DNA of 64,000 bases. Source: Candidatus Omnitrophota bacterium. Lineage in GTDB: Bacteria > Omnitrophota > Omnitrophia > Omnitrophales > Aquincolibacteriaceae. The notes beneath the pieces are model-generated. The model was not told where the DNA came from and did no database searches. It worked only from the letters and a program-made list of their open reading frames with translations. Below, in pieces: positions 2,235 to 59,515 of the stretch. A program made the translations under genes and the position numbers. Positions within the stretch are counted from its first letter, which is position 1. Each line of letters opens with the position of its first letter. The stretch covers positions 129,238 to 193,237 of the forward strand of contig JBAYVF010000001.1 of NCBI GenBank assembly GCA_041674705.1, given 5' to 3'.

Positions 2235-3269
2235 ATGGAAAAAATACTCTTTTTAGCTCATACAGATTCGAACGGTCATCTTCCGAAGATCGCGCTCGAA
2301 ACCTTGAGCGCGGCCCTTGAGATCCAGAAAGGTCTCGCAGGCTCTACGCTGACAGTCGGTCTTGTCGGAGAGAATGTCCAGGCTGCTGCGGATCAGATCG
2401 CTGCGTGCGGCGCCGCGAAAATTCTCGGAGTGAGCGGGGCTGATTTTGGAATGTCCCGCTACGCGACGGATGTGAAAGCTGCGGAAGCGATCGGAACCGC
2501 TTCCGGCGCGACGATCATGATCGCTCCGGCGACTTCGCGTTTCTCTCGGGCGCTTCCCGGCGCGGCGTTCCGTTTGAAGGCCACGATCGATACGCACGTG
2601 AGCGGTATCCAGATCACAGACGGTGTTCTGCAGATCCAGCGCTGGTATTACCGTCAGCGCATGATGGCAACTTTGACGCGCGCGGCGCGACCCTGGATCC
2701 TTGCGATCGATTCCGGTGTGTTCGAGCCTTGGCAAGGGGCCAAAGGCGCGGCAAAAGTGGAAGCGATCGCGGTTGCTGTGACGGATAAGGAAAAGCGCAC
2801 GAAAATGACAGGCGTTGAAGCGCCTTCCGCGGACGCACAGACCATTCGGCCCGAGGCTGCGATCTTGCTTGTGGCCGGCGCCGGATGGACCAAGAAACAA
2901 ACGGACGGCCAGATCCATGCCAAGGAAGCCGAGAAACACATTCTTGATTTCTTGAAGCATGCCAAGGCGTCGCTTGGGAGCAGCAAATCCCTCGTGGACC
3001 AGGGCTCGGAAGGGGAAGCGGTCCTTTCCTGCATGAGCCATCTGAACCAGGTTGGACAGACCGGCTCCACGCCGCGTCACCCGAAGGGTCTTTCCACCTG
3101 CTGTCATGGCGAAGAACCGCACGTGGTTGGCTGGCGCTTCATTAATGAACGTCGCGCGATCAATACCGACGCTAATTGCGGCTGGGCCCAGGGCAAGGCG
3201 GATGTGCTTTATGTGGCGGATGCTTTTGCCGTCATGGCCAAGGTCAACGAGCTTCTCGCTAAGGGCTGA
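2235..3269 (+). CDS. etfA: electron transfer flavoprotein alpha-subunit-like protein with non-canonical FAD-binding motif
   Basis: Colinear with EtfA. It has VGQTG followed 30 aa later by AINTD (canonical AINKD). The canonical YIAVGISGAIQHLAGM segment reads GLSTCCHGEEPHVVGW here. Confidence 0.7.
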   Translation: MEKILFLAHTDSNGHLPKIALETLSAALEIQKGLAGSTLTVGLVGENVQAAADQIAACGAAKILGVSGADFGMSRYATDVKAAEAIGTASGATIMIAPATSRFSRALPGAAFRLKATIDTHVSGIQITDGVLQIQRWYYRQRMMATLTRAARPWILAIDSGVFEPWQGAKGAAKVEAIAVAVTDKEKRTKMTGVEAPSADAQTIRPEAAILLVAGAGWTKKQTDGQIHAKEAEKHILDFLKHAKASLGSSKSLVDQGSEGEAVLSCMSHLNQVGQTGSTPRHPKGLSTCCHGEEPHVVGWRFINERRAINTDANCGWAQGKADVLYVADAFAVMAKVNELLAKG

Positions 3270-3291
3270 TTTTCAATTTTCAGATTTTAAA

Positions 3292-3332
3292 GGGGCAATT
3301 TCTCCAGGGTCAGGAGAGATTGCCCCTTTTTT
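3292..3332 (+). terminator. intrinsic terminator after the etfB/etfA-like pair
   Basis: GGGGCAATTTCTCC / GGAGAGATTGCCCC stem followed by TTTTTT. Confidence 0.8.
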
Positions 3333-3542
3333 ACATTTTCCCCTCTACAAATAACGCAAGCCGCCCCTTATTTCAGGCTGTTTTTTTTAAAAAAGCGCTA
3401 AAAACACCTGCCATTTTTTAATAGACAAAAGAAACGTTTCAGGTAAACTGTGCCCGGCTTAACAGGCCTTGATAGATCGCACAGTTATCAACCACCCAAA
3501 GATCACCAAACGAAATTGTCGAGACTAAAGGAGGGGTGTGCC

Positions 3543-4175
3543 ATGGTGTTTAAATTCCTGCTTCCCAAAGAAACCAGCTTCTTCAATCTTTTTGATAAAC
3601 AGTCGGATTATGCCGTCCAGGCTGCCACCCATTTTGTGAAAATGGTTGCTGATTATAAAGTGGATGAGACCGAGGTCGGGATCATGAAGGAAATCGAACA
3701 CCTTGGGGATGAAGTAACGCATCAGGTGCTGGATCAGCTCAATGACACCTTCATCACGCCGTTTGACCGCGAAGATATTCACGATCTGGCGAAGAAAATG
3801 GATGATATTGTGGACATGCTTTACACCCTGACCAAGCGTCTTCGTGTTTATAAGATCCTGAGCATGGAGCGAAACCTTACGGAATTTGCCCGCGTGATCG
3901 AAATGTCCGTCAAAGGCGTTTCGCAGGCCGTTAAAGGCCTCCGGGACATGAAAAACAGCAAGGAGATCCTCAAGGCCTGCATTGAAGTGAATAATCTCGA
4001 GAATCTTGGCGATAAGATGCGCGATGATATGTTAGGCGAACTTTTTGAAAAATATGCCAAAGACCCCGTCGCGGTGATCAAGTGGAAAGACATCTATCAG
4101 GACGCGGAAACGGTTCTGGATGTTTGCGAGGACGTCGTGCACGTGGTCGAATCCATTCTCGTCAAACACGCTTAG
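3543..4175 (+). CDS. DUF47 / PhoU-like phosphate-transport accessory protein
   Basis: Begins MVFKFLLPKETSFFNLFDKQ, with an all-helical PhoU-like repeat composition. AAGGAGG RBS upstream of the internal ATG. Immediately precedes a PiT transporter, the classic pairing. Confidence 0.8.
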   Translation: MVFKFLLPKETSFFNLFDKQSDYAVQAATHFVKMVADYKVDETEVGIMKEIEHLGDEVTHQVLDQLNDTFITPFDREDIHDLAKKMDDIVDMLYTLTKRLRVYKILSMERNLTEFARVIEMSVKGVSQAVKGLRDMKNSKEILKACIEVNNLENLGDKMRDDMLGELFEKYAKDPVAVIKWKDIYQDAETVLDVCEDVVHVVESILVKHA

Positions 4176-4188
4176 CGGGGGAGCGATC

Positions 4189-5181
4189 ATGACCACCTGG
4201 ATCCTTTTTCTTATCCTGCTCGCCCTCACGTTCGATTTTCTGAACGGGTTCCACGATTCCGCGAATTCCATTGCGACGGTCGTTTCCACCCGCGTTCTTT
4301 CTCCACAACATGCGGTGATCTGGGCCGCATTTTTCAACTTTATCGCGTTTCTCTTCTTCGGGCTCCATGTCGCCAATACGATCGGCAAGGGGATCATTGA
4401 TATCAACATTGTGGACAGCCAGATCATCTTTGGCGCCCTGATGGGGGCTTGCGCCTGGAATATCATCACCTGGTATTTCGGCCTTCCGACCAGTTCTTCT
4501 CACGCGTTGATCGGCGGGTTGGTGGGCTCCGCGCTTGTGAAAGCCGGGACAGGATCTTTGGTCTGGAGCGGCATCATCAAGACGGTCGCTTTTATTTTGA
4601 TCTCACCAGTGGTCGGGCTCTTCCTAGGCGTGGTTTATGGCGTGATCGTTCACTGGCTTGCCCGGAAGAGTTCGCCGGCTGGGGTCGATCACTGGTTCCG
4701 GAAAGGGCAGTTGGTTTCCGCCGCGCTTTATAGCCTGGGACATGGCGGTAATGACGCGCAGAAGACCATGGGTATTATCGCGAGCCTTCTTTTCAGCGCG
4801 GGGCTTCTCGGAAAAGAATTCCATATTCCTTTCTGGGTCGTGATCTCGTGTCAGGCCGCCATTGCCATCGGGACGATGTTCGGCGGCTGGAGGATCGTGA
4901 AGACCATGGGGCAAAAAGTGGCAAAACTTCGTCCGGTAGACGGTTTTTGCGCAGAAGCAGGAGCTGCTACGAGCTTGTTCATAGCCTCGGCTTTCGGCAT
5001 TCCGGTCAGTACGACGCATACGATCACCGGCGCGATCATGGGGGTGGGTTCTTTGAAGCGTATGAGCGCGGTCCGATGGGGCGTCGCGGGAAGCATTGTC
5101 TGGGCGTGGATCATTACGATCCCGTGCGCGGCGGCGATCTCGGCTATTTCTTACGCTGCGGCCCGATGGGTTGCCCATTAA
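4189..5181 (+). CDS. pitA: inorganic phosphate transporter, PiT family
   Basis: Both PiT signature halves are present: FDFLNGFHDSANSIAT and GHGGNDAQKTMG. Polytopic membrane protein. Confidence 0.9.
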   Translation: MTTWILFLILLALTFDFLNGFHDSANSIATVVSTRVLSPQHAVIWAAFFNFIAFLFFGLHVANTIGKGIIDINIVDSQIIFGALMGACAWNIITWYFGLPTSSSHALIGGLVGSALVKAGTGSLVWSGIIKTVAFILISPVVGLFLGVVYGVIVHWLARKSSPAGVDHWFRKGQLVSAALYSLGHGGNDAQKTMGIIASLLFSAGLLGKEFHIPFWVVISCQAAIAIGTMFGGWRIVKTMGQKVAKLRPVDGFCAEAGAATSLFIASAFGIPVSTTHTITGAIMGVGSLKRMSAVRWGVAGSIVWAWIITIPCAAAISAISYAAARWVAH

Positions 5182-5261: not shown

Positions 5262-5975
5262 GTGATTCCAAATTCCGGAAAGCTTCGAAATGTTTTTTCC
5301 ACGACGCTCCTTTGCGGGATCATCCTGCTTCTGATCCAGGGAATTTGCACTCCCGTGGCAATCGCTTCTCCGGCTAAAGACGAAGATTTCGGGATCTGGA
5401 ATGTCTATGATGTTGAGAAAAAACTGAACAAACAATGGAAAATGTGGGCGGGTGAAGAGCTGCGTTTTCGGGAACATAACGGGATTTATTACACCGAAAC
5501 CCATGTAGGGACGAACTATCAGCCATCCAAATATCTGGCCCTGGGTGCCTTGTACCTCGAGAACCGTGCATCCCGGACCCAAAAGAAGGACGAAATCTGG
5601 TATTGGGAATCCGAACCGCGCATTTATATGACGCCGCAGCTTCCGGTCTATGGGTTCCTTCTGGAAAACCGTAACATGCTGGGATTCCGTTGGCGGCAGG
5701 AATCGAAATTTGCGATGGTGTACCGGAACATGACGACCCTCACGTCCCCCTGGAAATGGACGCAGTTCGAATTTCAGCCTTACACCGCCAATGAAATTTT
5801 TCTGGAAACGAACAGGAACGGAATGATTGAAGATCGGTTCTATTCGGGATTCAAAGCCCATTGGTGGGGGCCATTTTATGGATCGATCTTCTATTTACGC
5901 CAATCCAAAAAGAACTCCATCGGAAAATGGACTGCGCTTAATATCCTTGGCACCAGCCTCAAGATCGTTTTTTAG
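5262..5975 (+). CDS. putative outer-membrane beta-barrel protein (DUF2490-like)
   Basis: Signal peptide (KLRNVFSTTLLCGIILLLIQGICTPVAIA-SP). Alternating aromatic/polar beta-strand pattern, ending in ...SLKIVF. Start is uncertain (TTG 5208 or GTG 5262). Confidence 0.45.
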   Translation: MIPNSGKLRNVFSTTLLCGIILLLIQGICTPVAIASPAKDEDFGIWNVYDVEKKLNKQWKMWAGEELRFREHNGIYYTETHVGTNYQPSKYLALGALYLENRASRTQKKDEIWYWESEPRIYMTPQLPVYGFLLENRNMLGFRWRQESKFAMVYRNMTTLTSPWKWTQFEFQPYTANEIFLETNRNGMIEDRFYSGFKAHWWGPFYGSIFYLRQSKKNSIGKWTALNILGTSLKIVF

Positions 5976-9885: not shown

Positions 9886-10263
9886 ATGTTTAAGAAGATT
9901 ATCAGTATGACCGTGGTATTGGCCATGTTCATGGCCATCAGCGGCGTGGCTTATGCCGAAGAAAAGAATGCGGACAAAAGTCTGACCCGTGGCGCGGCAT
10001 CCTTGCTATTGCCGGGGTGGGGACAATATCTCAATAACGAAATGGACACCAAGAGCGGCAAGTTCAAGACCGGCGCCATGATCGTCCTCGAGATCGGCGG
10101 CATTGTGACGACGATCCTCCTCGGAACACTCGTGGGTTATCCCGTGATCTGGGTCGGTATCGGGATCCTGATGTTCAACCATATCTGGAGCGCTTCGGAT
10201 GCTTATCTGAAGGTCCCGGTGGGTCCTGAGGTCGGGATGAAGGGCGAGACGCTCGAGCGTTAA
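9886..10263 (+). CDS. small membrane protein with signal peptide and PGWGQY motif
   Basis: GGGAGGG RBS and an N-terminal signal peptide ending AYA. LLPGWGQYLN motif followed by two hydrophobic helices. Confidence 0.65.
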   Translation: MFKKIISMTVVLAMFMAISGVAYAEEKNADKSLTRGAASLLLPGWGQYLNNEMDTKSGKFKTGAMIVLEIGGIVTTILLGTLVGYPVIWVGIGILMFNHIWSASDAYLKVPVGPEVGMKGETLER

Positions 10264-10267
10264 TGCT

Positions 10268-11299
10268 TTGAAGTCCGTTCTTTCTTTTAAAAAAAGCAGG
10301 CCGTGGAAACTCTGCGGCCTGCTTTTTTTATGCTTTCTTTCTTCCGGATTTTCCCTGTCTTCCTCGAAATCCGAAGGGCGGTCGTTCCCGCTTCCGGGGA
10401 ATTTTGAGGAAGTTTGGAATGCCACGCTCGCGACGCTCGAGGCCGAAAAGATCCCGCTCGCCACAACCGACAAAGCCCGGGGCTATATCCGATCCGTGAC
10501 ATTTCCTTTGTACAAAAAAGAATACAAAGAATGGGCCAAGGCTCCCAGTATTTCTTCGAGTGGATTTTGCGCGCTTGAGATCGGTATCGTGGAAAAGGAT
10601 CCGACCATGACAGTCGTCGGGATCCGGGCTTATTTTAAAAGAAAGACCGGCCTTTCGTCGAAGGGGTTCCGGAAAACCGATGGGTCGCGTGGAAGGTTCG
10701 AAGGGCTCTTGGGGAAAAATATCAATGAACGGCTTGTCGAGGCGAAGTTCCCGGCCCTGAAAAGCGTGATCCTGGGTTGTGATCTTCACTATGATGACAA
10801 GACGGCGCGTTATTTTATTGCCGGTGCCGACGAGTCATCGCTTGCCTATGAGCAAGGGCTTCGCAACGGAGATGTGCTTTTAAAGATCGCGGGGCAGGAC
10901 GTGACGCCCGGGAATCTTTTCGGTTTCTTTTTGAATATTCAGGGAGAAGCTCTTAAGAAATTCACGATCCTTCGGAAAGAGGGAGAACTGGAGCTGCCGA
11001 TCAGTATTTTTTTTCTGAATCCCGACGCGCCACATCTCGGATTCCGGGTGGAGCGTAACCCAAAAAATCTGCGTTTTGTTATCACGGAAGTGCGCGCCGG
11101 CTCTCCGGCGGAGCGGGAAGGGTTTTTGCCGAGGGACATTTTGCTCAAACAGAACAACATCCTGCTCGATAACTGGGAAAACTATTACCGAGCGATCCTG
11201 GCCCAAAAAGATGGAGAACCTCAGATCTTCCAGATCGAAAGGCGCGGCAAGCTTCTTGAAAAGAAGATCATTCCCCCCGGGAATCAAGTCCCTGCATGA
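10268..11299 (+). CDS. secreted/lipoprotein-like protein with two C-terminal PDZ domains
   Basis: Basic N-terminus plus hydrophobic core. Two PDZ-like segments (GLRNGDVLLKIAGQDV, GSPAEREGFLPRDILLKQNN). The TTG start is the only plausible in-frame start. Confidence 0.65.
   Translation: MKSVLSFKKSRPWKLCGLLFLCFLSSGFSLSSSKSEGRSFPLPGNFEEVWNATLATLEAEKIPLATTDKARGYIRSVTFPLYKKEYKEWAKAPSISSSGFCALEIGIVEKDPTMTVVGIRAYFKRKTGLSSKGFRKTDGSRGRFEGLLGKNINERLVEAKFPALKSVILGCDLHYDDKTARYFIAGADESSLAYEQGLRNGDVLLKIAGQDVTPGNLFGFFLNIQGEALKKFTILRKEGELELPISIFFLNPDAPHLGFRVERNPKNLRFVITEVRAGSPAEREGFLPRDILLKQNNILLDNWENYYRAILAQKDGEPQIFQIERRGKLLEKKIIPPGNQVPA
10295..10329 (+). terminator. intrinsic-terminator-like hairpin overlapping the 5' end of the next ORF
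   Basis: AGCAGGCCG / CGGCCTGCT stem flanked by an A-run and TTTTTTT. Confidence 0.65.
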
Positions 11300-11745
11300 A
11301 AGATGCTCGTCTCGCTTTAATTTATTCCATCGTGGCCCCAGGTTTGGGACAGCTCTATCTTGGAGAGCGCGCCAAGGGGTGGACGCTTTTATGTATGAGC
11401 GCTGGAGTGGTCGTGAGCCTGATCATCAGTCATACGGCGATCGCCTTGTTTTTAATGGGAGGCATCTATTTGGCCGTGATGATCCCCGCAGCGCGGGACG
11501 CTTTTCAGACCGCTTCCGGCCAGTCCCGGACTTTTGTGGCGAATACTGTTCCTTACGTGATCATGATGCTTCTCATGATCGGGCCGTTTGCGATCCCCCT
11601 TTTATGGCAAAGCGCAAAGTTTTCAAAGACGGCGAAGATCCTCTGGACCGTCGCCGTGATCCTGATCGCGCTTTTAGGGATCGCGACTCTGACGTTCATG
11701 GCTTCGTCCCTGGACAAGTTCATGAAACAGGCCGGGGCCGTTTAG
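11296..11745 (+). CDS. polytopic membrane protein with PGLGQLY motif
   Basis: ATGA start/stop overlap with the upstream gene. IVAPGLGQLYLGERAKGW motif followed by about 4 TM helices. Confidence 0.6.
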   Translation: MKDARLALIYSIVAPGLGQLYLGERAKGWTLLCMSAGVVVSLIISHTAIALFLMGGIYLAVMIPAARDAFQTASGQSRTFVANTVPYVIMMLLMIGPFAIPLLWQSAKFSKTAKILWTVAVILIALLGIATLTFMASSLDKFMKQAGAV

Positions 11746-11835: not shown

Positions 11836-12324
11836 GTGAATTCTAAGAGAATCGTTTCGCTTTTTTTGCTCTCTTTTTTGATGATGGGGCCGGGGTGCTA
11901 CGCGGAAGATCCCCAGGCTCCCCAAGCGGCTTCTGTTTCAACTCCGGTCACGTCTCCGGCGCCGGGTCTGTGGTCCGATGGCTGGTATCAAGGCGCTTCC
12001 GGGTACGATCAGGCGGTCGCGGAGTATAAGCGGACCAACAAACCAATGGTCGTTTATATGAGCGTCGGGTGGTGCCCTTACTGCCGTAAATTTGAAAAAG
12101 AGGTGCTGTCAGCACCCCGGGTGCAGAACATGCTGAAGGACATGATCCGGGTCAATATCAATCCGGAAGCCGGAAGCCGCGAGAACGCGCTCGCGTTCCA
12201 ATACGGGATCCGGGGATTTCCGTCTTTTTTTCTTCATCCTCCTCAGCCCGGAGGTGCCGTACAACTTGCAACGGGAGTGACCCCCGAGCAGTTCGTCGAT
12301 TTTTTCAAACAAGTCCTCGGTTAG
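11836..12324 (+). CDS. secreted thioredoxin-fold protein
   Basis: Signal peptide, WCPYC redox motif, GTG start. Confidence 0.7.
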   Translation: MNSKRIVSLFLLSFLMMGPGCYAEDPQAPQAASVSTPVTSPAPGLWSDGWYQGASGYDQAVAEYKRTNKPMVVYMSVGWCPYCRKFEKEVLSAPRVQNMLKDMIRVNINPEAGSRENALAFQYGIRGFPSFFLHPPQPGGAVQLATGVTPEQFVDFFKQVLG

Positions 12325-17992: not shown

Positions 17993-18000
17993 AGAAAGTC

Positions 18001-18080
18001 ATCAAGTCACCAGGTCGCAAAGACACCAAGTGATAAAGGAACTGCTTGGTGACATGGTGACGGGAGGGCTTGGCGTCTTT
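18001..18080. repeat. imperfect inverted repeat built from GTCACCA/CTTGGTG-type short repeats between convergent genes
   Basis: CACCAAG / CTTGGTG and AAAGACACCAAG / CTTGGCGTCTTT complementary segments; lies between the pilT stop and the AI-2E stop. Confidence 0.5.
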
Positions 18081-20563: not shown

Positions 20564-20580
20564 CATTTTTTCTCATAAAA

Positions 20581-20619
20581 GGGGACAGGCTACTTTACCC
20601 TATAAAGTAGCCTGTCCCC
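20581..20619. terminator. bidirectional intrinsic terminator between convergent genes
   Basis: 17-bp perfect stem GGGGACAGGCTACTTTA / TAAAGTAGCCTGTCCCC flanked by AAAA and TTTATTTT. Confidence 0.85.
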
Positions 20620-20620
20620 T

Positions 20621-20971
20621 TTATTTTCGGAAGATTTCCACGCCAACGTTTTTTGCATTCCGAATGGCGTCCGGCTTTGAAATGCGCAGAAGAATATCCC
20701 TCAGTTTGAATTCCCGGAGCAATATCTTGGCAAGGCGTTCCGCCAGAGTTTCTATCAGATAGAAACGGCTTTTTTGGGTAAATTCCGTGGCGCGGTCGGC
20801 GATCTTTTTGTAATTCAAAGCGTCTCGCAGGTCATCCCGCCTTGCGGCCCTTTTGACAGGAGCCGAGAACTCGAGATCGATCAGGACCTTTTGTTTTTTC
20901 TTGCGTTCCTGCGGAAGCGTTCCGATGATACAGGACACCTCAAGACCTTGTATGAAGATTTTTCCATCCAT
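20621..20971 (-). CDS. folB: dihydroneopterin aldolase
   Basis: IFIQGLEVSCIIGTLPQER... and ALNYKKIADR motifs; about 116 aa. Confidence 0.85.
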   Translation of the reverse strand: MDGKIFIQGLEVSCIIGTLPQERKKKQKVLIDLEFSAPVKRAARRDDLRDALNYKKIADRATEFTQKSRFYLIETLAERLAKILLREFKLRDILLRISKPDAIRNAKNVGVEIFRK

Positions 20972-20995
20972 GCCTGCTAGTCTATCACTTGAAAT

Positions 20996-21078
20996 TAGAG
21001 TTTCAAAGTGTCAGAGTGTCAAAGTTTCAAAGTGTTACAGTGCTGGCTTTGAACCTCGACACTCTGATACACTGACGC
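20996..21078. repeat. imperfect hairpin with CAAAGTGT-type short direct repeats
   Basis: TCAGAGTGTCAAAGTTTCAAAG (21011-21032) is complementary to CTTTGAACCTCGACACTCTGA (21047-21067) apart from an internal loop. Confidence 0.55.
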
Positions 21079-21103
21079 TCCAATTCAGTTTAAATTCAAT
21101 CCT

Positions 21104-22800: not shown

Positions 22801-23534
22801 TGAGAATTGCACATGCCCTGGCCAGCGCGGGGCTTGGATCCCGAAGAAAATGCGAGGTTTTTGTCACCAACGGCGCCATTTCCGTGAACGGCGAGGTTGT
22901 GCTCGATCTTGGCCGGCAGGTGGATTTCCAGAAAGATACGATCATGTACCGGCAGAAGGTCCTCCAGCTGGCGCCTCATGTCTATTTTCTTGTGAACAAA
23001 CCCGAAGGTTATGTGGTGACGGCCGAAGACCGGCATGCCAAAAAAACGGTTTTCGATCTTCTGCCGCGTCATCTTGTAAATGCCACGCGCCAATCTTCGA
23101 CGAACCGTGTTCGCGTGTTCCCGGTCGGTCGGCTCGATAAAGATTCCTCGGGCCTTCTTCTTATGACTAATGACGGTGAACTCGCGAACCGTTTGATCCA
23201 TCCGCGCTTTCACGTGGAAAAATGGTATCAGGTAAAACTCAATCGCGCCTGGGACGAGCGAGACCGTAACAGGGTCTTGGAGGGTTTTCATTCTTACGAT
23301 GGTTTTCTCAAACTGGAAGAGATCCGGCCGATCTCGCCAAGGATCTTGATGGTGGAACTCCGCGAAGGAAAGAAGCGACAGATCCGGCGGGTACTCCAAC
23401 GCTTCGAATATGATGTAGTGATGCTCAACCGTTTTTCCTTCGGGCCCCTCAAGCTTGGTCATCTTGCGCCGGGCCAGGGCCGCTTTTTAACTTCCTACGA
23501 GGCTCGCGAACTCCGCAAGGCGGTCGACTTATAG
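22800..23534 (+). CDS. rluB: pseudouridine synthase, RsuA/RluB family
   Basis: N-terminal S4 domain (LASAGLGSRRKCE) and catalytic GRLDKDSSGLLLMTNDG motif. Confidence 0.85.
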   Translation: MRIAHALASAGLGSRRKCEVFVTNGAISVNGEVVLDLGRQVDFQKDTIMYRQKVLQLAPHVYFLVNKPEGYVVTAEDRHAKKTVFDLLPRHLVNATRQSSTNRVRVFPVGRLDKDSSGLLLMTNDGELANRLIHPRFHVEKWYQVKLNRAWDERDRNRVLEGFHSYDGFLKLEEIRPISPRILMVELREGKKRQIRRVLQRFEYDVVMLNRFSFGPLKLGHLAPGQGRFLTSYEARELRKAVDL

Positions 23535-23590
23535 TGCCACGCACCACGATCCACGGGCCACGTGGGACGTGGATCTTGGCCCGTGGCCCT
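23535..23590. repeat. hairpin with CCACG / CGTGG motifs spaced at 7-nt intervals
   Basis: GCCACGC ACCACGA TCCACGG GCCACGT followed by GACGTGG ATCTTGG CCCGTGG. Confidence 0.55.
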
Positions 23591-23596
23591 AGCAGT

Positions 23597-27194: not shown

Positions 27195-27211
27195 TCTTAA
27201 AGGAGGGCTTG

Positions 27212-27333
27212 CCCCGTTAGAGATTGTCGCATCAGTATTTTATCGAAACGATTCGCAACAGAAGTGAGGAGATCATGGACACCATATTAAAAACAGACGG
27301 AAGCGCTGAAGGCGCTTCCTATCTCTAACGGGG
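27212..27333. repeat. MITE-like element with CCCCGTTAGAGAT / ATCTCTAACGGGG inverted termini (copy A)
   Basis: 13-nt perfect terminal inverted repeat. Subterminal hairpin GGAAGCG...CGCTTCC is shared with copy C. Ends 6 nt before the cysK ATG. Confidence 0.7.
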
Positions 27334-27339
27334 TGAACT

Positions 27340-30481: not shown

Positions 30482-30488
30482 TTAGGAT

Positions 30489-30620
30489 AAGCACCAAGAA
30501 TCAATTTCCAAATTCCAAGCAAGCACCAAACGCCAATCTTCAAAGTGTGTTTGGAATTTTTATTTTTGAGAAATGGAATTTGTTTGGTTCTTGGTTCTTG
30601 GTTCTTGGTTTTTGGAATTT
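30489..30620. repeat. long imperfect inverted repeat with CCAA / TTGG heptad-periodic arms
   Basis: Right arm contains TTGGTTC x3 in tandem, then TTGGTTT TTGGAAT. Left arm carries complementary ...CCAA motifs (AAATTCCAA, ACCAAAC). Confidence 0.6.
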
Positions 30621-30639
30621 TAAATGGCAGGAGCGAGAT

Positions 30640-33665: not shown

Positions 33666-33673
33666 TGTGCGTG

Positions 33674-33719
33674 CCCTTTCAAGACCCGGTCTTCCGCGGA
33701 AGACCGGGTCTTTGAAGGG
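33674..33719 (+). terminator. long GC-rich hairpin after the exonuclease-like gene
   Basis: AAGACCCGGTCTTCC / GGAAGACCGGGTCTT stem with only a short U-tract. Confidence 0.5.
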
Positions 33720-33747
33720 TTAGCGAAAGTCGGAGGATCTCTTGATA

Positions 33748-42282: not shown

Positions 42283-42385
42283 CCCCGTTAGAGTCTCAAA
42301 TGACTTTGGCGGAGGAAAGAGCGATCGTTTTCAAGGTTTTTGGGGCAGAAAATTTTTTCAACATTTGGTTAAGACTCTAACGGGG
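42283..42385. repeat. MITE-like element with CCCCGTTAGAGTC / GACTCTAACGGGG inverted termini (copy B)
   Basis: 13-nt perfect terminal inverted repeat; ends 5 nt before the yebC ATG. Confidence 0.65.
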
Positions 42386-42390
42386 GAACC

Positions 42391-43137
42391 ATGTCGGGAC
42401 ATTCAAAATGGGCGAGTATCAAGCATAAAAAGGCGATCGTGGACGCCAAACGCGGCCAGGTCTTTACGAAGTTCATCCGCGAGATCACGGTCGCGGCCAA
42501 AACAGGCGGCGGGGATTTGAACACCAACCCACGGCTTCGCACCGCTATTCAATCCGCCAAGGATTCCAACATGCCGGCCGACAACATCGATCGCGCGATC
42601 AAAAAAGGGACGGGCGAACTGGAAGGCGTGACCTATGAGGAAATTTCCTACGAAGGTTTTGGCCCCGAAGGCGCGGCAGTCCTGGTGGCTTGCCTGACGG
42701 ACAATAAGAACCGCTCGGCTTCCGAGATCCGGAGTCTCTTCAACAAAAATGGCGGCAACATGGGAAGCGCCGGAACGGTGGCGTGGATGTTCGAGAAGAA
42801 AGGTTTTATCGTGATCGCAAAGACCGCGACCACCGAAGACCAACTCATGGAAATCGCGCTTGGCGCCGGGGCCGAAGATATGACCTCGACCGAGACGATG
42901 TTTGAAGTGACGACGGCACCTCAGGATCTTTGGGCGGTCCGTGAGGCCATTGAAAAAGCGAAGATCAAGATCGAGAGCGCGAACCTCACCATGATCCCCA
43001 AAAATCTCGTGAGCGTATCGGCGGACACGGGGCGCAAGGTGATCCATCTGATTGAGGCCTTGGAAGAGCATGACGACGTCCAGAATGTTTATTCGAACGC
43101 GGATATCCCCGAAGAAGTGATGAAAGAACTTGCATGA
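42391..43137 (+). CDS. yebC: YebC/PmpR-family transcriptional regulator
   Basis: MSGHSKWASIKHKKA N-terminus diagnostic of the family. Confidence 0.93.
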   Translation: MSGHSKWASIKHKKAIVDAKRGQVFTKFIREITVAAKTGGGDLNTNPRLRTAIQSAKDSNMPADNIDRAIKKGTGELEGVTYEEISYEGFGPEGAAVLVACLTDNKNRSASEIRSLFNKNGGNMGSAGTVAWMFEKKGFIVIAKTATTEDQLMEIALGAGAEDMTSTETMFEVTTAPQDLWAVREAIEKAKIKIESANLTMIPKNLVSVSADTGRKVIHLIEALEEHDDVQNVYSNADIPEEVMKELA

Positions 43138-43219
43138 CAGACTTCAGACTTCAGACTGGAGACTACAGACTTAAAAACAAGTTTTTTCCTGTAGTCTGTA
43201 GTCTGTGGTCTGTGGTCTC
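43138..43219. repeat. 31-bp imperfect hairpin whose arms are tandem heptamers (CAGACTN / CTGTNGT)
   Basis: Manual pairing gives 24 of 31 Watson-Crick pairs plus 3 G-U. Mismatches recur at the same positions of each 7-nt unit. Starts 1 nt after the yebC stop. Confidence 0.75.
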
Positions 43220-43240
43220 CGCGCGCAGGAGATTTGTTCC

Positions 43241-43732
43241 ATGCGCGTAATGGGTATTGACCCCGGCACGCACCGGACCGGCTTTGGGATCCTCGAATCT
43301 ACCGGACGGAGTTACAAGCTTGTGATCTGCGGCACCATCCGTGCCGCCTCTAAAGATCCGATTGCCAAACGCCTCCTTCATATTTTTGAATCCCTCCAGA
43401 AAAATATCCAGAGTTACAAACCCGATGTCGTGGCGCTTGAGACTCTTTTTTTCGCCAAGGATGTTCGTGCGGTTGAACGGATCGGGGCGGCACGCGCTTG
43501 CGCTATGCTCGCGGCTTCTAAGCAGGGCATCGAAGTGATAGAATACGCCCCGACGGCCGTAAAAAAGTCCGTGACCGGTAACGGCCGCGCGGCCAAAGAA
43601 CAGGTGCAATTTATGGTGAAACGCCTTTTGAATCTGAAAGAAGCTCCGGCGCTTGACGCCTCCGATGCGCTTGCCGTCGCGATGTGCCATTTGCATTCTT
43701 CTAAACGAAAGGTTTTATGTACCACTACCTGA
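43241..43732 (+). CDS. ruvC: crossover junction endodeoxyribonuclease RuvC
   Basis: MRVMGIDPGT... catalytic Asp motif. Confidence 0.92.
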   Translation: MRVMGIDPGTHRTGFGILESTGRSYKLVICGTIRAASKDPIAKRLLHIFESLQKNIQSYKPDVVALETLFFAKDVRAVERIGAARACAMLAASKQGIEVIEYAPTAVKKSVTGNGRAAKEQVQFMVKRLLNLKEAPALDASDALAVAMCHLHSSKRKVLCTTT

Positions 43733-45353: not shown

Positions 45354-45370
45354 GGTGCTTCATAGATTTC

Positions 45371-45400
45371 TTGGAAGGTGCATCCGTGCCGTGTTATATT
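45371..45400 (+). promoter_or_regulatory. possible sigma-70 promoter for the DUF2905-cdaA-cdaR unit
   Basis: TTGGAA, 18-nt spacer, TATATT. Confidence 0.35.
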
Positions 45401-45424
45401 ACGGCAAATCTCGAGAGGAGCCCT

Positions 45425-45640
45425 ATGAGCGACCTTGCAAAAACTCTGATCTTCTTCGGCCTGATCCTGGTAGGTATGGGGATCTTCGCGGCTATTTTTT
45501 CAAAGATTCCAATGCTTGGAAAACTCCCGGGCGACATCTTCCTCCGCAAGGGGAGCTTCGCTTTTTATTTACCCATCACTACTTGCATCCTGCTCAGCCT
45601 GATCCTCACGCTCGCTTTCACGCTTTTCGGAAAAAAATAA
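45425..45640 (+). CDS. DUF2905-family small membrane protein
   Basis: LPGDIFLRKGSFAFYLPITTCILLS motif; GAGGAG RBS. Confidence 0.7.
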   Translation: MSDLAKTLIFFGLILVGMGIFAAIFSKIPMLGKLPGDIFLRKGSFAFYLPITTCILLSLILTLAFTLFGKK

Positions 45641-47405: not shown

Positions 47406-48140
47406 ATGACGACCCGAATCCTTTTAAAAAAACTCGGCGTTAATATCGATCATGTTGCGACATTGCGCCAGGCGCGTCTTGGGGAAGAGCCTTCCGTCCT
47501 GGAGGCCGCGCTCGAAGCGGAGCAAGGCGGGGCCGACAGTATTACGGTTCATTTGCGCGAAGATCGTCGTCACATCCAGGATGCGGACGTTTTTGAGCTC
47601 ATGGAAAAGATCTATGTTCCTCTCAATCTCGAGATGTCCGTCTCGTCCGAGATCCTGAAACTCGCCCTTAAAGTGAGACCCGCAAAGGCATGTCTCGTTC
47701 CCGAAAAGCGGAAAGAACTGACGACCGAGGGGGGCCTCGACCTTTTTTCAAAAAAGAACCCCTTGATCCGGACGGTCGACGCGCTTTTGGCGAAAAAAGT
47801 CGAGGTCAGCCTTTTTATTGATCCGGTGGAAACCCAAGTGCAAGAAGCCTCCCGGCTTGGCGCGTACGCGATCGAGATCCATACGGGATCGTATGCGAAT
47901 GCCGAGGGAAAGAAAAAAGAAAAGGAGCTTCTGCGCGTTTGTGAGGCCGCGCGGTTGGGCCACAAACTCGGGCTTCGAATCCATGCCGGGCATGGGCTTA
48001 ATTACGAGAATATTTTTCCGCTGCTTGCGATCCCGGAGATCATCGAATTCAATATCGGGCATTCCATCATCAGCCGCGCCATGTTCGTTGGATTAGCCAA
48101 AGCTGTCCAGGAAATGAAGAAAATAATTAGTACGAAGTAA
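47406..48140 (+). CDS. pdxJ: pyridoxine 5'-phosphate synthase
   Basis: LGVNIDHVATLRQAR and HLREDRRHI motifs. Confidence 0.93.
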   Translation: MTTRILLKKLGVNIDHVATLRQARLGEEPSVLEAALEAEQGGADSITVHLREDRRHIQDADVFELMEKIYVPLNLEMSVSSEILKLALKVRPAKACLVPEKRKELTTEGGLDLFSKKNPLIRTVDALLAKKVEVSLFIDPVETQVQEASRLGAYAIEIHTGSYANAEGKKKEKELLRVCEAARLGHKLGLRIHAGHGLNYENIFPLLAIPEIIEFNIGHSIISRAMFVGLAKAVQEMKKIISTK

Positions 48141-48207
48141 GGAGTACGGAGTACGGCGTAAAAACAAAGCCAAAGACTCCGTACCCCGTACGCCGTACGC
48201 CTTACTC
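48129..48207. repeat. imperfect hairpin with AGTACGG / CCGTACG tandem-heptamer arms
   Basis: 48136-48160 pairs with 48182-48206 at 22 of 25 positions, with a mismatch recurring every 7 nt. Overlaps the pdxJ stop codon. Confidence 0.7.
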
Positions 48208-49083: not shown

Positions 49084-50034
49084 ATGAATCCTTTTGACGC
49101 TTATAAAAATTGCACGCTTTGTCCTCGCGATTGTAAAGTTGATCGGACGCAAGGAAAACGAGGTTTCTGCGGAGAAAGCGCGACTTGCGCGGTCGCATTT
49201 CTTGGCCCTCATTTCGGCGAAGAGCCTTCTTTTGCAGGCTCCCGGGGTTCCGGTACGATCTTCTTCAGCGGCTGTTCCAGCCAGTGTTTTTTCTGTCAAA
49301 ATCACCAGATCTCGATCCAGCATGACGGCCGGGCGGTGACTCCGGCGGAACTTTTCTTCGAAGTTAAAGAACTTGTCCGGAAAAAAGTCCACAATCTCAA
49401 TTTTGTAACACCGGACCATTTCTGGCCGCATATCCAGGTGCTTTGCCAGGCGCTCCGGGAAGAAGGAATTAAGATCCCCAGGCTTTTTAACTGCTCCGGG
49501 TATCAGAAAGCGGAAAAGGTGAAAGAATACGCTCAGGAGATGGATATTTTTCTTCCCGATTTTAAATTCGCGGAGCCAGAACTTGCGAAGATGTGCATGG
49601 GGGATGCGCGCTATCCCGAAATCGCTCTGAAAGCGCTCCGGGAGATGATTCAATTCAAGGGTTTTCTCGAACCCTGGGATACGACGGGGCTCCAGACGGC
49701 CAGCCGGGGAGTCCTTGTTCGGCATCTGGTGCTGCCAGGGTATGCGGAGAACAGCCTGAAGGTCTTAAAACTTTTGCATAAGGAATTCGGGTCCGGGATC
49801 CCGCTTTCTGTGATGAGCCAGTTCCGGCCAGTGGCAGAATGTTGCAAGCGGCATGAGCTTGAGCGGACCGTCAGGATCAAGGAGTATGAACAGGTCCTGG
49901 AGCTTGTGATCAAGCTCGGCTTCGAAAGGGTTTACACGCAGGAACTCAAGGAAGAGACGGCTTTTTTACCCGATTTTAAAAACCCCAAGAATCCGTTTCC
50001 CGGCAATAAGAAACGGAGGGAGGATGGTGGATGA
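49084..50034 (+). CDS. radical SAM protein, PflX-like activase family
   Basis: N-terminal CPRDC...C cluster and radical SAM CSSQCFFC motif. Confidence 0.78.
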   Translation: MNPFDAYKNCTLCPRDCKVDRTQGKRGFCGESATCAVAFLGPHFGEEPSFAGSRGSGTIFFSGCSSQCFFCQNHQISIQHDGRAVTPAELFFEVKELVRKKVHNLNFVTPDHFWPHIQVLCQALREEGIKIPRLFNCSGYQKAEKVKEYAQEMDIFLPDFKFAEPELAKMCMGDARYPEIALKALREMIQFKGFLEPWDTTGLQTASRGVLVRHLVLPGYAENSLKVLKLLHKEFGSGIPLSVMSQFRPVAECCKRHELERTVRIKEYEQVLELVIKLGFERVYTQELKEETAFLPDFKNPKNPFPGNKKRREDGG

Positions 50035-50087
50035 CGGATGGCGACAGGCTTGTTTTTTCTCCATCCACCCTCCGATCTCCTCCATCC
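50015..50087. repeat. imperfect hairpin with GGATGG / CCATCC heptad-periodic arms
   Basis: Left arm GATGGTG GATGACG GATGGCG and right arm CTCCATC CACCCTC CGATCTC CTCCATC. About 19 of 27 positions are complementary. Overlaps the stop codon. Confidence 0.55.
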
Positions 50088-50155
50088 AATTGTAAAACAC
50101 TGGCTATTGGTTAGACCGCGGATATATAATTGAGCATTAAAATCCAGAGAAAATT

Positions 50156-50827: not shown

Positions 50828-50836
50828 GATGGCTTG

Positions 50837-50957
50837 CCCCGTTAGAGATTTTCAGGAACGAGGGTATAATAGCGTTCCACCTTTAAATGGGATTAATGTG
50901 AAAGAGAAGCGCAATTTTACGGAAGCGATTTAAAATCGCTTCCTATCTCTAACGGGG
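50837..50957. repeat. MITE-like element with CCCCGTTAGAGAT / ATCTCTAACGGGG inverted termini (copy C)
   Basis: Termini are identical to copy A. It shares GGCTTG 5' flank identity and the subterminal GGAAGCG-loop-CGCTTCC hairpin. Confidence 0.7.
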
Positions 50958-51044
50958 CTTGAGAAATTCAGGAAGTGACCCGAAAATCAAAACCCGGTTT
51001 TGGAAAGCACGCAAAACCAGGTTTTTAAAAGAACGGGGTGAATT

Positions 51045-58196: not shown

Positions 58197-58248
58197 TACC
58201 GGATTAAGACCCGGTGTTCTTTGTAACACCGGGTCTTAATAAGGATGC

Positions 58249-59424: not shown

Positions 59425-59515
59425 AAAAAGCGTAAGTAGTATGTGGCGGGTAGATCCAGCGAGCTGGCTTTAGCTAACTACTACCTACTACTTACCACCT
59501 ACTACATACTGGTTT
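59425..59515. repeat. imperfect hairpin with GTA / TAC heptad-periodic arms
   Basis: 59432-59453 vs 59488-59509 are complementary at 17 of 22 positions. Right arm reads TAACTAC TACCTAC TACTTAC CACCTAC TACATAC. Confidence 0.55.

Follow-up and report, generated by a model that had tools for sequence, protein, structure and literature searches.

A set of long hairpins in a Candidatus Omnitrophota genome has arms that are themselves tandem arrays of short units, mostly heptamers. They lie in a stretch of 64,000 nucleotides (nt) of contig JBAYVF010000001.1, which as a whole is called the window here, and the example treated most fully fills the junction between yebC and ruvC (43138-43219). Heptamer hairpins are a lineage-typical class in Candidatus Omnitrophota. 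We lean, with modest confidence, toward the reading that these inverted heptamer arrays were built by slippage and are kept at gene boundaries as stem-loops.

The yebC gene ends with TGA at 43135-43137, and the hairpin abuts this stop codon directly. An earlier note on this DNA described the arms as tandem heptamers joined by 24 Watson–Crick and 3 G-U pairs, and its arm sequences, coordinates, and pair counts are exact: ungapped, position-by-position pairing of 43138-43168 with 43189-43219 leaves 4 non-pairs. These are T.T at 43144 and 43151, G.G at 43159, and C.C at 43138; they recur at the unit boundary, as the claim of a fixed position within each unit had it. The left-arm units are CAGACTT, and the right-arm units read CAGACYA when reverse-complemented. 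For the left arm, the lag-7 autocorrelation is 0.82 (shuffle p = 0.0002). The loop does hold a small palindrome of its own, AAAAACAAGTTTTT at 43173-43186. Folded as RNA, the hairpin reaches -46.6 kcal/mol versus -26.2 +/- 3.2 for its dinucleotide shuffles, none of which equals it (0/200; z = -6.5); the fold z-scores of the other hairpins compare energies in the same way.

A chance origin of the period-7 arrays is excluded. The note had proposed a comparison with shuffled controls, and within the window the periodicity stands out clearly: four period-7 arrays pass a strict lag scan, which yields no array at the other periods from 4 to 13, and 50 Markov-2 resamples give an expectation of 0.02 for period 7. 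A detector of periodic hairpins reports five in the real window versus two, both of period 10, in 12 shuffled windows.

Seven other sites had been listed as architecturally similar, and RNA folding makes all of them long hairpins with periodic arms. Across the eight hairpins, 14 of 16 arms are periodic beyond arm shuffles (p < 0.05, the best of periods 4-11 being taken). The units are 7 nt long in six window hairpins and 8 nt long at 17998 and 20993, so the idea of a different heptamer at each site stands as to the lack of shared sequence within the genome and falls as to unit length at these two. Two further hairpins, with GTAC-type and GCCACA-type units, were found on the same contig within the 9.5 kb that precede the window. 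This brings the total to ten hairpins in 73.5 kb of this genome; all ten are intergenic or intrude on a gene no further than its last codons. No sequence shared among them was found by blastn-short, and their longest common substring, 10 nt, is at chance level.

Seven of the eight hairpins in the window sit at gene 3' ends, three of them (48130, 50015, and 23532) beginning within the final codons of the upstream gene; the exception is 20993, which lies in a divergent promoter spacer and shows that the post-stop position described earlier is not universal. The flanking genes are ordinary and functionally unrelated to each other (genes at 32-53 kb are taken from a Pfam gene table for the source contig, ENA ERZ27247358 k141_2139437). 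Copy numbers are similar between paired arms (5.0/4.3 and 3.7/3.9 by Tandem Repeats Finder). Because spacers without a hairpin measure 9-18 nt (the window spacer between nnrD and the radical SAM gene, only 9 nt, and the yebC-ruvC spacer of locus L002), it is the hairpin that makes the spacer, and because it occupies the entire spacer, its position after the stop codon is largely a by-product. An apex of A5-6C and/or GT5-6 occurs in a subset of hairpins only, irrespective of the arm unit: at 43173-43187, 48160-48168, and 50049-50056 of the window (minus-strand sense), and in L003, L097, L098, and L106.

The closest relatives of the source genome are Candidatus Omnitrophota metagenome-assembled genomes (MAGs). 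Among 80 yebC loci from GTDB species genomes, period-7 hairpins number nine in 114 kb of Omnitrophota sequence versus none in 377 kb from other phyla (conditional P about 2e-6). Tandem-armed hairpins with 9- or 10-nt units are found in other phyla, at L038 4463-4647 (an Aridibacter famidurans MAG, with 60-nt arms holding six copies of NNNAGACTC), at L021 5004-5105, and at L043 1613-1697 and 4902-5050 (bacterium UASB14). Tandem-armed hairpins are therefore not confined to Omnitrophota, and their unit length seems to be lineage-specific.

Relatives show how the hairpin at a given junction changes. In L106, whose yebC has 90% nucleotide identity with that of the window, the yebC-ruvC junction has an orthologous hairpin with 5+4 units that keeps the A5C..GT6 apex; the AGAC/GTCT cores are conserved, positions at the unit boundary vary, and 74% of the hairpin as a whole is identical, a level similar to that at third codon positions. 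L001 and L003 (yebC 85% identical in nucleotides) have yebC-ruvC hairpins with unrelated units, CTAAAYY and GCGCAAC. In L004, L005, L098, and L100 a canonical GGGGACAGGC stem with a T-run replaces the hairpin. An account by extreme turnover, in which a relative with a 95%-identical YebC has a different heptamer at this site, was rejected, as yebC is only 85% identical at the nucleotide level and neutral sites are therefore near saturation.

The pdxJ-nnrD junction has a heptamer hairpin in all nine genomes compared (the window, L082, L087, L092, L097, L098, L100, L105, and L106), with at least five unit types among them. The 48130 hairpin of the window is identical to that of L105 at 72 of 78 positions (92%), compared with 64% of third codon positions in pdxJ and 56% in nnrD (P = 7e-9 for the excess in the hairpin). 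It forms the identity maximum of the 1.7-kb comparison between the two, and its flanks are ordinary, which argues for purifying selection rather than a recombination tract. This comparison indicates that at least one hairpin, 48130, is under purifying selection.

The left arms at this junction also encode the C-terminal tails of 120 PdxJ homologues, and hairpin turnover thus creates variation in protein tails. The homologues (P0001-P0120) are 244-259 amino acids (aa) long, and their lengths differ only by the tails after ..AVQEMKKII (window 48112-48140). At least three recurrent tail types (TSGK.., QTSD.R.., and S.EHGVRSSE) are interspersed on the PdxJ distance tree. Hairpins of the GTAAG type at pdxJ occur in more than 40 PdxJ lineages.

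A metagenome scan with the radical SAM protein yielded only 10 loci. At the junction after the radical SAM gene, a hairpin is present in the window and in L097. In L106 the coding left arm is intact and the right arm is exactly 21 nt, or three units, shorter than that of the window (50062-50089); in L092 the right arm is absent. The 50015 hairpin sits immediately before a box, CTGGCTATTGG(N6)GACCGCGGATATATAAT, conserved upstream of the PD-(D/E)XK nuclease gene in the window (50095-50130), L092, L097, L098, L100, and L106. The box is probably the promoter of that gene.

Whole-unit change in one arm and homogeneity within arms argue for slippage within each arm, the generating mechanism that the earlier note had suggested. 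Variants are common to the units of one arm and are not mirrored between arms. T.T recurs at the same unit position in two successive units at 43138, and A.G does likewise at 48136, where left-arm units AGTACGG face right-arm units that read CGTACGG in reverse complement, placing the non-pairs exactly 7 nt apart (48143, 48150, and 48157; the pdxJ stop codon TAA lies within this left arm at 48138-48140). Neither arm is a plain copy of the other. In the 48130 hairpin the inner units are GTACG/CGTAC, and the outermost pair keeps GTAAG/CTTAC as in L087 and L098; the inner units thus differ by a double change, GTAAG>GTACG and CTTAC>CGTAC, on both arms. This is a pattern of compensatory slippage. 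The balanced arm lengths, the retained cores, and the conserved 48130 hairpin show pairing to be constrained.

The proposed course of events is that replication slippage of a unit would lengthen and shorten the arms, and that matching slippage in the other arm would restore the balance under the constraint to pair. The roughly one non-pair per unit would go back to a founder unit pair that was itself imperfect and whose flaw was multiplied with the unit. The periodic non-pairs need no special selection because amplification of an imperfect founder pair suffices, and the alternative of selection for periodically bulged helices, offered in the earlier note, can be set aside. Once retained, the stem-loop would act at gene boundaries, at 3' ends or between cistrons, where it might limit read-through or decay by 3' exonucleases, or offer a double-stranded processing site. 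In other relatives the same role would be filled at the same junction by a GC stem with a T-run. A 3'-end or intercistronic role at the RNA level is favored because relatives place a canonical terminator at the same junction and because the 50015 hairpin precedes a promoter-like box; we infer that at yebC-ruvC hairpins and canonical terminators may be functionally equivalent.

Copying between sites appears to be a further process. In three relatives, two hairpins at different loci share a unit and identical stretches of 14-17 nt: the yebC-ruvC hairpin of L001 and the nnrD-radical SAM hairpin of L105, which belong to one MAG, share CTAAACTCTAAATAAA (16-17 identical bases); the yebC and pdxJ hairpins of L106 have AGAGACTAGAGACC in common; and L003 has two hairpins with GCGCAAC units. 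The 30488 hairpin of the window aligns over 150 nt with L082 1615-1762, at a nonorthologous junction (E = 8e-11). The shared design without shared sequence noted earlier therefore holds among the hairpins of this genome and fails for these paralogues and for the L082 homologue. The window has its pdxJ hairpin in common with L105 but its yebC hairpin in common with L106, which is phylogenetically incongruent. In the L105 and L106 lineages the hairpin that has been replaced is similar to another one in that genome, which argues for copying between hairpins by ectopic conversion or transposition. Paralogues were counted only where long identical stretches exist; when the unit types of all hairpins are clustered, with rotation and strand allowed for, they are shared no more often than chance predicts (16 shared pairs versus about 22 expected by a hand estimate).

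Table 1. The yebC-ruvC hairpin with its flanking features, and the other tandem-armed hairpins of the window
Feature	Position	Strand	Evidence and remarks	Flanking genes
yebC coding sequence	42391..43137	+	Open reading frame (ORF); YebC/TACO1 family, Pfam PF20772 and PF01709 (gene table, source contig)	
43138 hairpin, left arm: five tandem heptamers CAGACTT CAGACTT CAGACTG GAGACTA CAGACTT	43138..43172	+	Tandem Repeats Finder: period 7, 5.0 copies	yebC / ruvC, co-directional
43138 hairpin, A/T-rich 16-nt apex AAAAACAAGTTTTTTC with mini-palindrome AAAAAC-AA-GTTTTT	43173..43188	+		
43138 hairpin, right arm: CTGTAGT CTGTAGT CTGTGGT CTGTGGT CTC	43189..43219	+	Tandem Repeats Finder: period 7, 4.3 copies	
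Spacer with AGGAG ribosome-binding site of ruvC	43220..43240	+	81% conserved in L106	
ruvC coding sequence, downstream gene	43241..43732	+	Pfam PF02075, E = 5.8e-51	
17998 hairpin, 8-nt units (CAAGTCAC-like)	17994..18080	+	Fold z = -3.7; period 8, p = 0.0002 and 0.01	T2SSE ATPase (+) / AI-2E transporter (-), convergent (Pfam)
20993 hairpin, 8-nt units (AGTGTCAA)	20989..21088	+	Tandem Repeats Finder: period 8, 4.6 copies; z = -6.4	folB (-) / tRNA U5-methyltransferase-like (+), divergent starts (Pfam)
23532 hairpin, heptamers NNNCCAC / GTGGNNN	23527..23596	+	z = -5.4; overlaps pseudouridine synthase stop codon	Pseudouridine synthase upstream, co-directional
30488 compound hairpin, 146 nt, units CCAAGAA / TTGGTTC	30482..30625	+	z = -3.7; 4.6 copies at 30584-30615 (Tandem Repeats Finder)	queF / redoxin gene, co-directional
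48130 hairpin, units AGTACGG / CCGTACG	48130..48207	+	z = -5.5; fills the pdxJ-nnrD spacer	pdxJ / NAD(P)H-hydrate dehydratase (nnrD), co-directional
50015 hairpin, units GGATGGN / CCATCCN	50015..50089	+	Left arm codes for last residues of radical SAM protein	Radical SAM / PD-(D/E)XK nuclease, co-directional
59432 hairpin, units GTAGTAN / CTACTAC	59432..59511	+	Weakest of the set, z = -1.7; 5.3 copies at 59474-59510 (Tandem Repeats Finder)	TPM-domain gene / hypothetical gene, co-directional

Several observations weigh against the account by slippage and retention at gene boundaries. There is no significant sense-strand G.U excess in symmetric ungapped pairing (41 G.T versus 31 A.C non-pairs, p = 0.29), and when both strands are folded, the sense strand has the lower minimum free energy in only some half of the cases; neither test points to an RNA-specific constraint. 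At 20993 the hairpin separates two divergent gene starts, and the hairpins have neither a U-tract nor short loops. No hairpin is present at yebC-ruvC in L002 or at the radical SAM junction in L092, L098, and L100, and the structure is therefore dispensable at individual sites. Copy number differs by three units at 50015 in L106; near-identical strains show no such polymorphism (L098/L099, L100/L101, L092-L096, and L104/window are identical), so slippage is not fast on that timescale.

Part of this evidence is what one would expect if the hairpins were a neutral or selfish by-product at the DNA level, with inverted repeats in spacers expanding by slippage or by quasi-palindrome template switching and then persisting, with no RNA function, because spacers tolerate them, a possible but rather unlikely explanation. 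The missing G.U excess and strand preference and the hairpin in the divergent promoter spacer all fit it, as do presence and absence differing between relatives and the shortness of spacers without a hairpin (9-18 nt). So does the over-representation of transition-type non-pairs (72 of 141), which simple decay predicts. Neutrality sits poorly with a 48130 hairpin that is far more conserved than synonymous sites while its flanks are ordinary, with a pdxJ-nnrD hairpin kept in nine of nine genomes despite saturated neutral divergence, with arm lengths that remain balanced, and with canonical terminators at the same junction in other relatives. A different origin, as small mobile elements of the REP/REPIN or MITE kind copied between spacers by a trans-acting enzyme, with the heptamer arms as part of the element, is quite improbable. 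The paralogous hairpins at different loci of one genome (L001/L105, L106, and L003), the match of the 30488 hairpin at another junction in L082, and the incongruent replacement pattern would follow from it. However, the ten hairpins of this genome lack a common sequence, neither a target-site duplication nor conserved termini can be seen, the annotated genes of the surrounding 21 kb include no transposase, unit types are shared at the level of chance, and ectopic gene conversion would account for the paralogues equally well.

That these are ordinary Rho-independent terminators of unusual appearance is very unlikely. Like canonical intrinsic terminators they are stem-loops at gene 3' ends (seven of eight), relatives have canonical terminators at yebC-ruvC, and T6 comes after one of the hairpins that precede the window (L107, spacer 5737-5961). 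However, a consensus scan for a stem, a short loop, and a T-run calls none of the four hairpins in 42-60 kb, in keeping with the earlier description of them as longer and more regular than ordinary terminators. Instead of short stems with 3-8-nt loops, they have stems of 25-35 bp broken by non-pairs about every 7 bp and loops of 12-39 nt. Mostly no U-tract follows the stem (43219 is followed by CGCGCGCAGGAG, 48207 by CAAAATG, and 59511 by GGTTTCAAAATG), and T-runs are instead found at the apex. In apparent operons, several hairpins leave just 4-10 nt before the start codon that follows (48130 and 59432), and the genome has normal A-tract/stem/T-tract terminators elsewhere (3289-3329, 10288-10330, 20578-20622, 33673-33720, and 58203-58240). 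The probability of a metagenome assembly or sequencing artefact is close to nil. The window comes from a MEGAHIT-style metagenome contig, and misassembly can yield inverted repeats, but the identical 48130 hairpin is present in an independent Logan assembly of a different sequencing run (99.95% identity over 4.4 kb), which speaks against an artefact. Orthologous hairpins in NCBI, JGI, ENA, and Logan assemblies of relatives do so too, and the hairpins are internal to the contig, imperfect, and placed between intact genes. Two other classes were considered and rejected: integron attC sites, which go with conserved R/L core boxes (GTTRRRY), gene cassettes, and an integrase close by, since the hairpins have no conserved core in common and syntenic housekeeping genes on their flanks (yebC, ruvCAB, and pdxJ), and CRISPR arrays, on anatomy.

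A search with Rfam 15 at the gathering score finds only two tRNAs in the window, and nothing at the hairpins up to E = 1. A weak match to AaHKsRNA41 at 10243-10326 (32 bits versus a gathering score of 97, E = 0.0016) overlaps the terminator at 10288-10330 and is most likely due to chance. Canonical bidirectional terminators of the clade reuse the stem AAAGGGGACAGGC...GCCTGTCCCCTTT at unrelated junctions (window 20578-20622, L004 3790-3812, L098 1440-1470, L100 4495-4530, and L105 7525-7575), which suggests a second dispersed hairpin family.

Another dispersed spacer element has conserved inverted termini, (G)CCCCGTTAGAG ... CTCTAACGGGG(C), separated by about 75-130 nt. Copies lie in the window at 27209-27336, 42283-42385 (just upstream of yebC), and 50836-50958, and in L106 at 11140-11300 and 12080-12210; in each case a + strand gene follows immediately. 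Between the termini the sequence varies and includes an inner GGAAGCG..CGCTTCC hairpin, and some copies also contain a TATAAT-like box. The orthologous spacer of L081 lacks the copy at 50836-50958 (12 nt versus 187 nt in the window), so this copy behaves like an insertion, either MITE-like or a portable promoter/5' untranslated region module. The relative represented by L081/L092, about 82% identical in nucleotides to the window and syntenic with it over 9 kb, also has an extra 159-aa ORF between ruvC and ruvA (257-772, relative to window 43715-43717) and a 2.3-kb insertion with ABC transporter and flavodoxin-like genes after ruvB (2418-4771, relative to window 45356-45425).

The hairpins are unannotated candidate signals for RNA processing or termination within operons of an uncultured phylum. 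Where their arms extend into coding regions they give rise to variable C-terminal tails, with consequences for the calling of genes and the clustering of proteins. In many MAGs the orthologous junctions make it possible to follow how individual hairpins arise, change by whole units, are conserved, or are replaced. A bolder proposition, which we consider unlikely, is that hairpins at gene boundaries may form a genome-wide system in Omnitrophota, several hundred strong (a figure scaled up from ten in 73.5 kb to a few Mb of genome), built by unit-length-specific expansion and kept by a dedicated function. If so, candidate functions would include periodically mismatched double-stranded RNA that escapes or directs RNase III, a DNA cruciform, or an array that a protein, such as one with cold-shock-type OB folds, reads in steps of one 7-nt unit. 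Copying between hairpins within the genome would then replace one by another.

Heptameric tandem repeats have been known in cyanobacteria since 1990 and are over-represented in many bacteria, an excess whose origin and function are unexplained (PMC2670836, PMC4692102). In the Omnitrophota hairpins, unit length is separated from any particular sequence: the 7-nt length and the inverted design recur in roughly one of five spacers and the unit sequence varies, so the constraint is on length and structure and not on a motif. If the same process underlies the heptamer excess in cyanobacteria, Xanthomonas, and others, these locus-specific hairpins should be a good system in which to identify it.

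One close parallel is the cyanobacterial STRR (short tandemly repeated repetitive) sequences, tandem 7-bp heptamers that include some hairpins between genes such as hupS-hupL; they are without a known function, and roles in transcript stability, translational coupling, and termination have been proposed (PMC2670836). As with STRR, the units found here are tandem, intergenic, and 7 nt long, and some arrays pair between adjacent genes. Unlike STRR, which comprises a few genome-wide heptamer families mostly in single direct arrays, the Omnitrophota arrays belong to another phylum, every substantial one forms one side of a hairpin, and nearly every site has a unit of its own. Closely related cyanobacterial strains reportedly carry unrelated STRR sequences in the same helix of the RNase P RNA, helix P12. 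As a positive control, 50 kb of the Nostoc plasmid pCC7120alpha gave three heptamer arrays, none with an inverted partner; STRR is therefore an analogue and does not have the same architecture by default. In the Beggiatoaceae, TAACTGA direct repeats lie upstream of start codons (PMC4679880). Neither TAACTGA, nor the STRR consensus heptamers (STRR1-3), nor GGGAATC occurs in tandem in the window.

GGGAATC is the unit of about 185 intergenic arrays in Xanthomonas, where 70-75 per genome form convergent, that is inverted, pairs; these can fold into stem-loops or cruciforms, and repeat length varies between species while the type is kept (PMC4692102). Inverted pairs of tandem heptamers in intergenic regions are thus common to both. 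In Xanthomonas, however, there is one G-rich unit, studied as a G-quadruplex former, whereas the Omnitrophota units are many, unrelated, and not G-rich, and their arms overlap stop codons and code for C-terminal tails. A precedent in mechanism is compensatory slippage in rRNA expansion segments (Hancock and Dover 1990), in which repeats on one strand of a helix are matched on the other (PMC1888808). The lengthening of a stem while its sequence turns over is the same, and the 21-nt, three-unit indel in one arm fits; that process was reported from eukaryotic rRNA and other structured RNAs whose motifs are very short, not from bacterial spacers or for a sharply preferred 7-nt unit.

The hairpins also resemble REP, BIME, and REPIN sequences in being imperfect palindromes of spacers, often in operons after stop codons, for which roles in stabilizing mRNA or in termination have been proposed; some of the Omnitrophota hairpins have paralogues at other loci. 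REPs, unlike them, are high-copy conserved families tied to a RAYT transposase and do not have arms of tandem units. No near-identical REP-like copies occur among the hairpins in the 73.5 kb of this genome, no RAYT (IS200/IS605-like) transposase is found among the genes annotated in 32-53 kb, and the absence of shared sequence among the ten hairpins argues against a REP-like high-copy family in this genome. Two-copy heptamer families are seen only in relatives and not among these ten. The design as such is already known from cyanobacteria and Xanthomonas; what is new here is the phylum, the near-obligatory pairing of the arrays, the site-specific units, and the overlap with stop codons.

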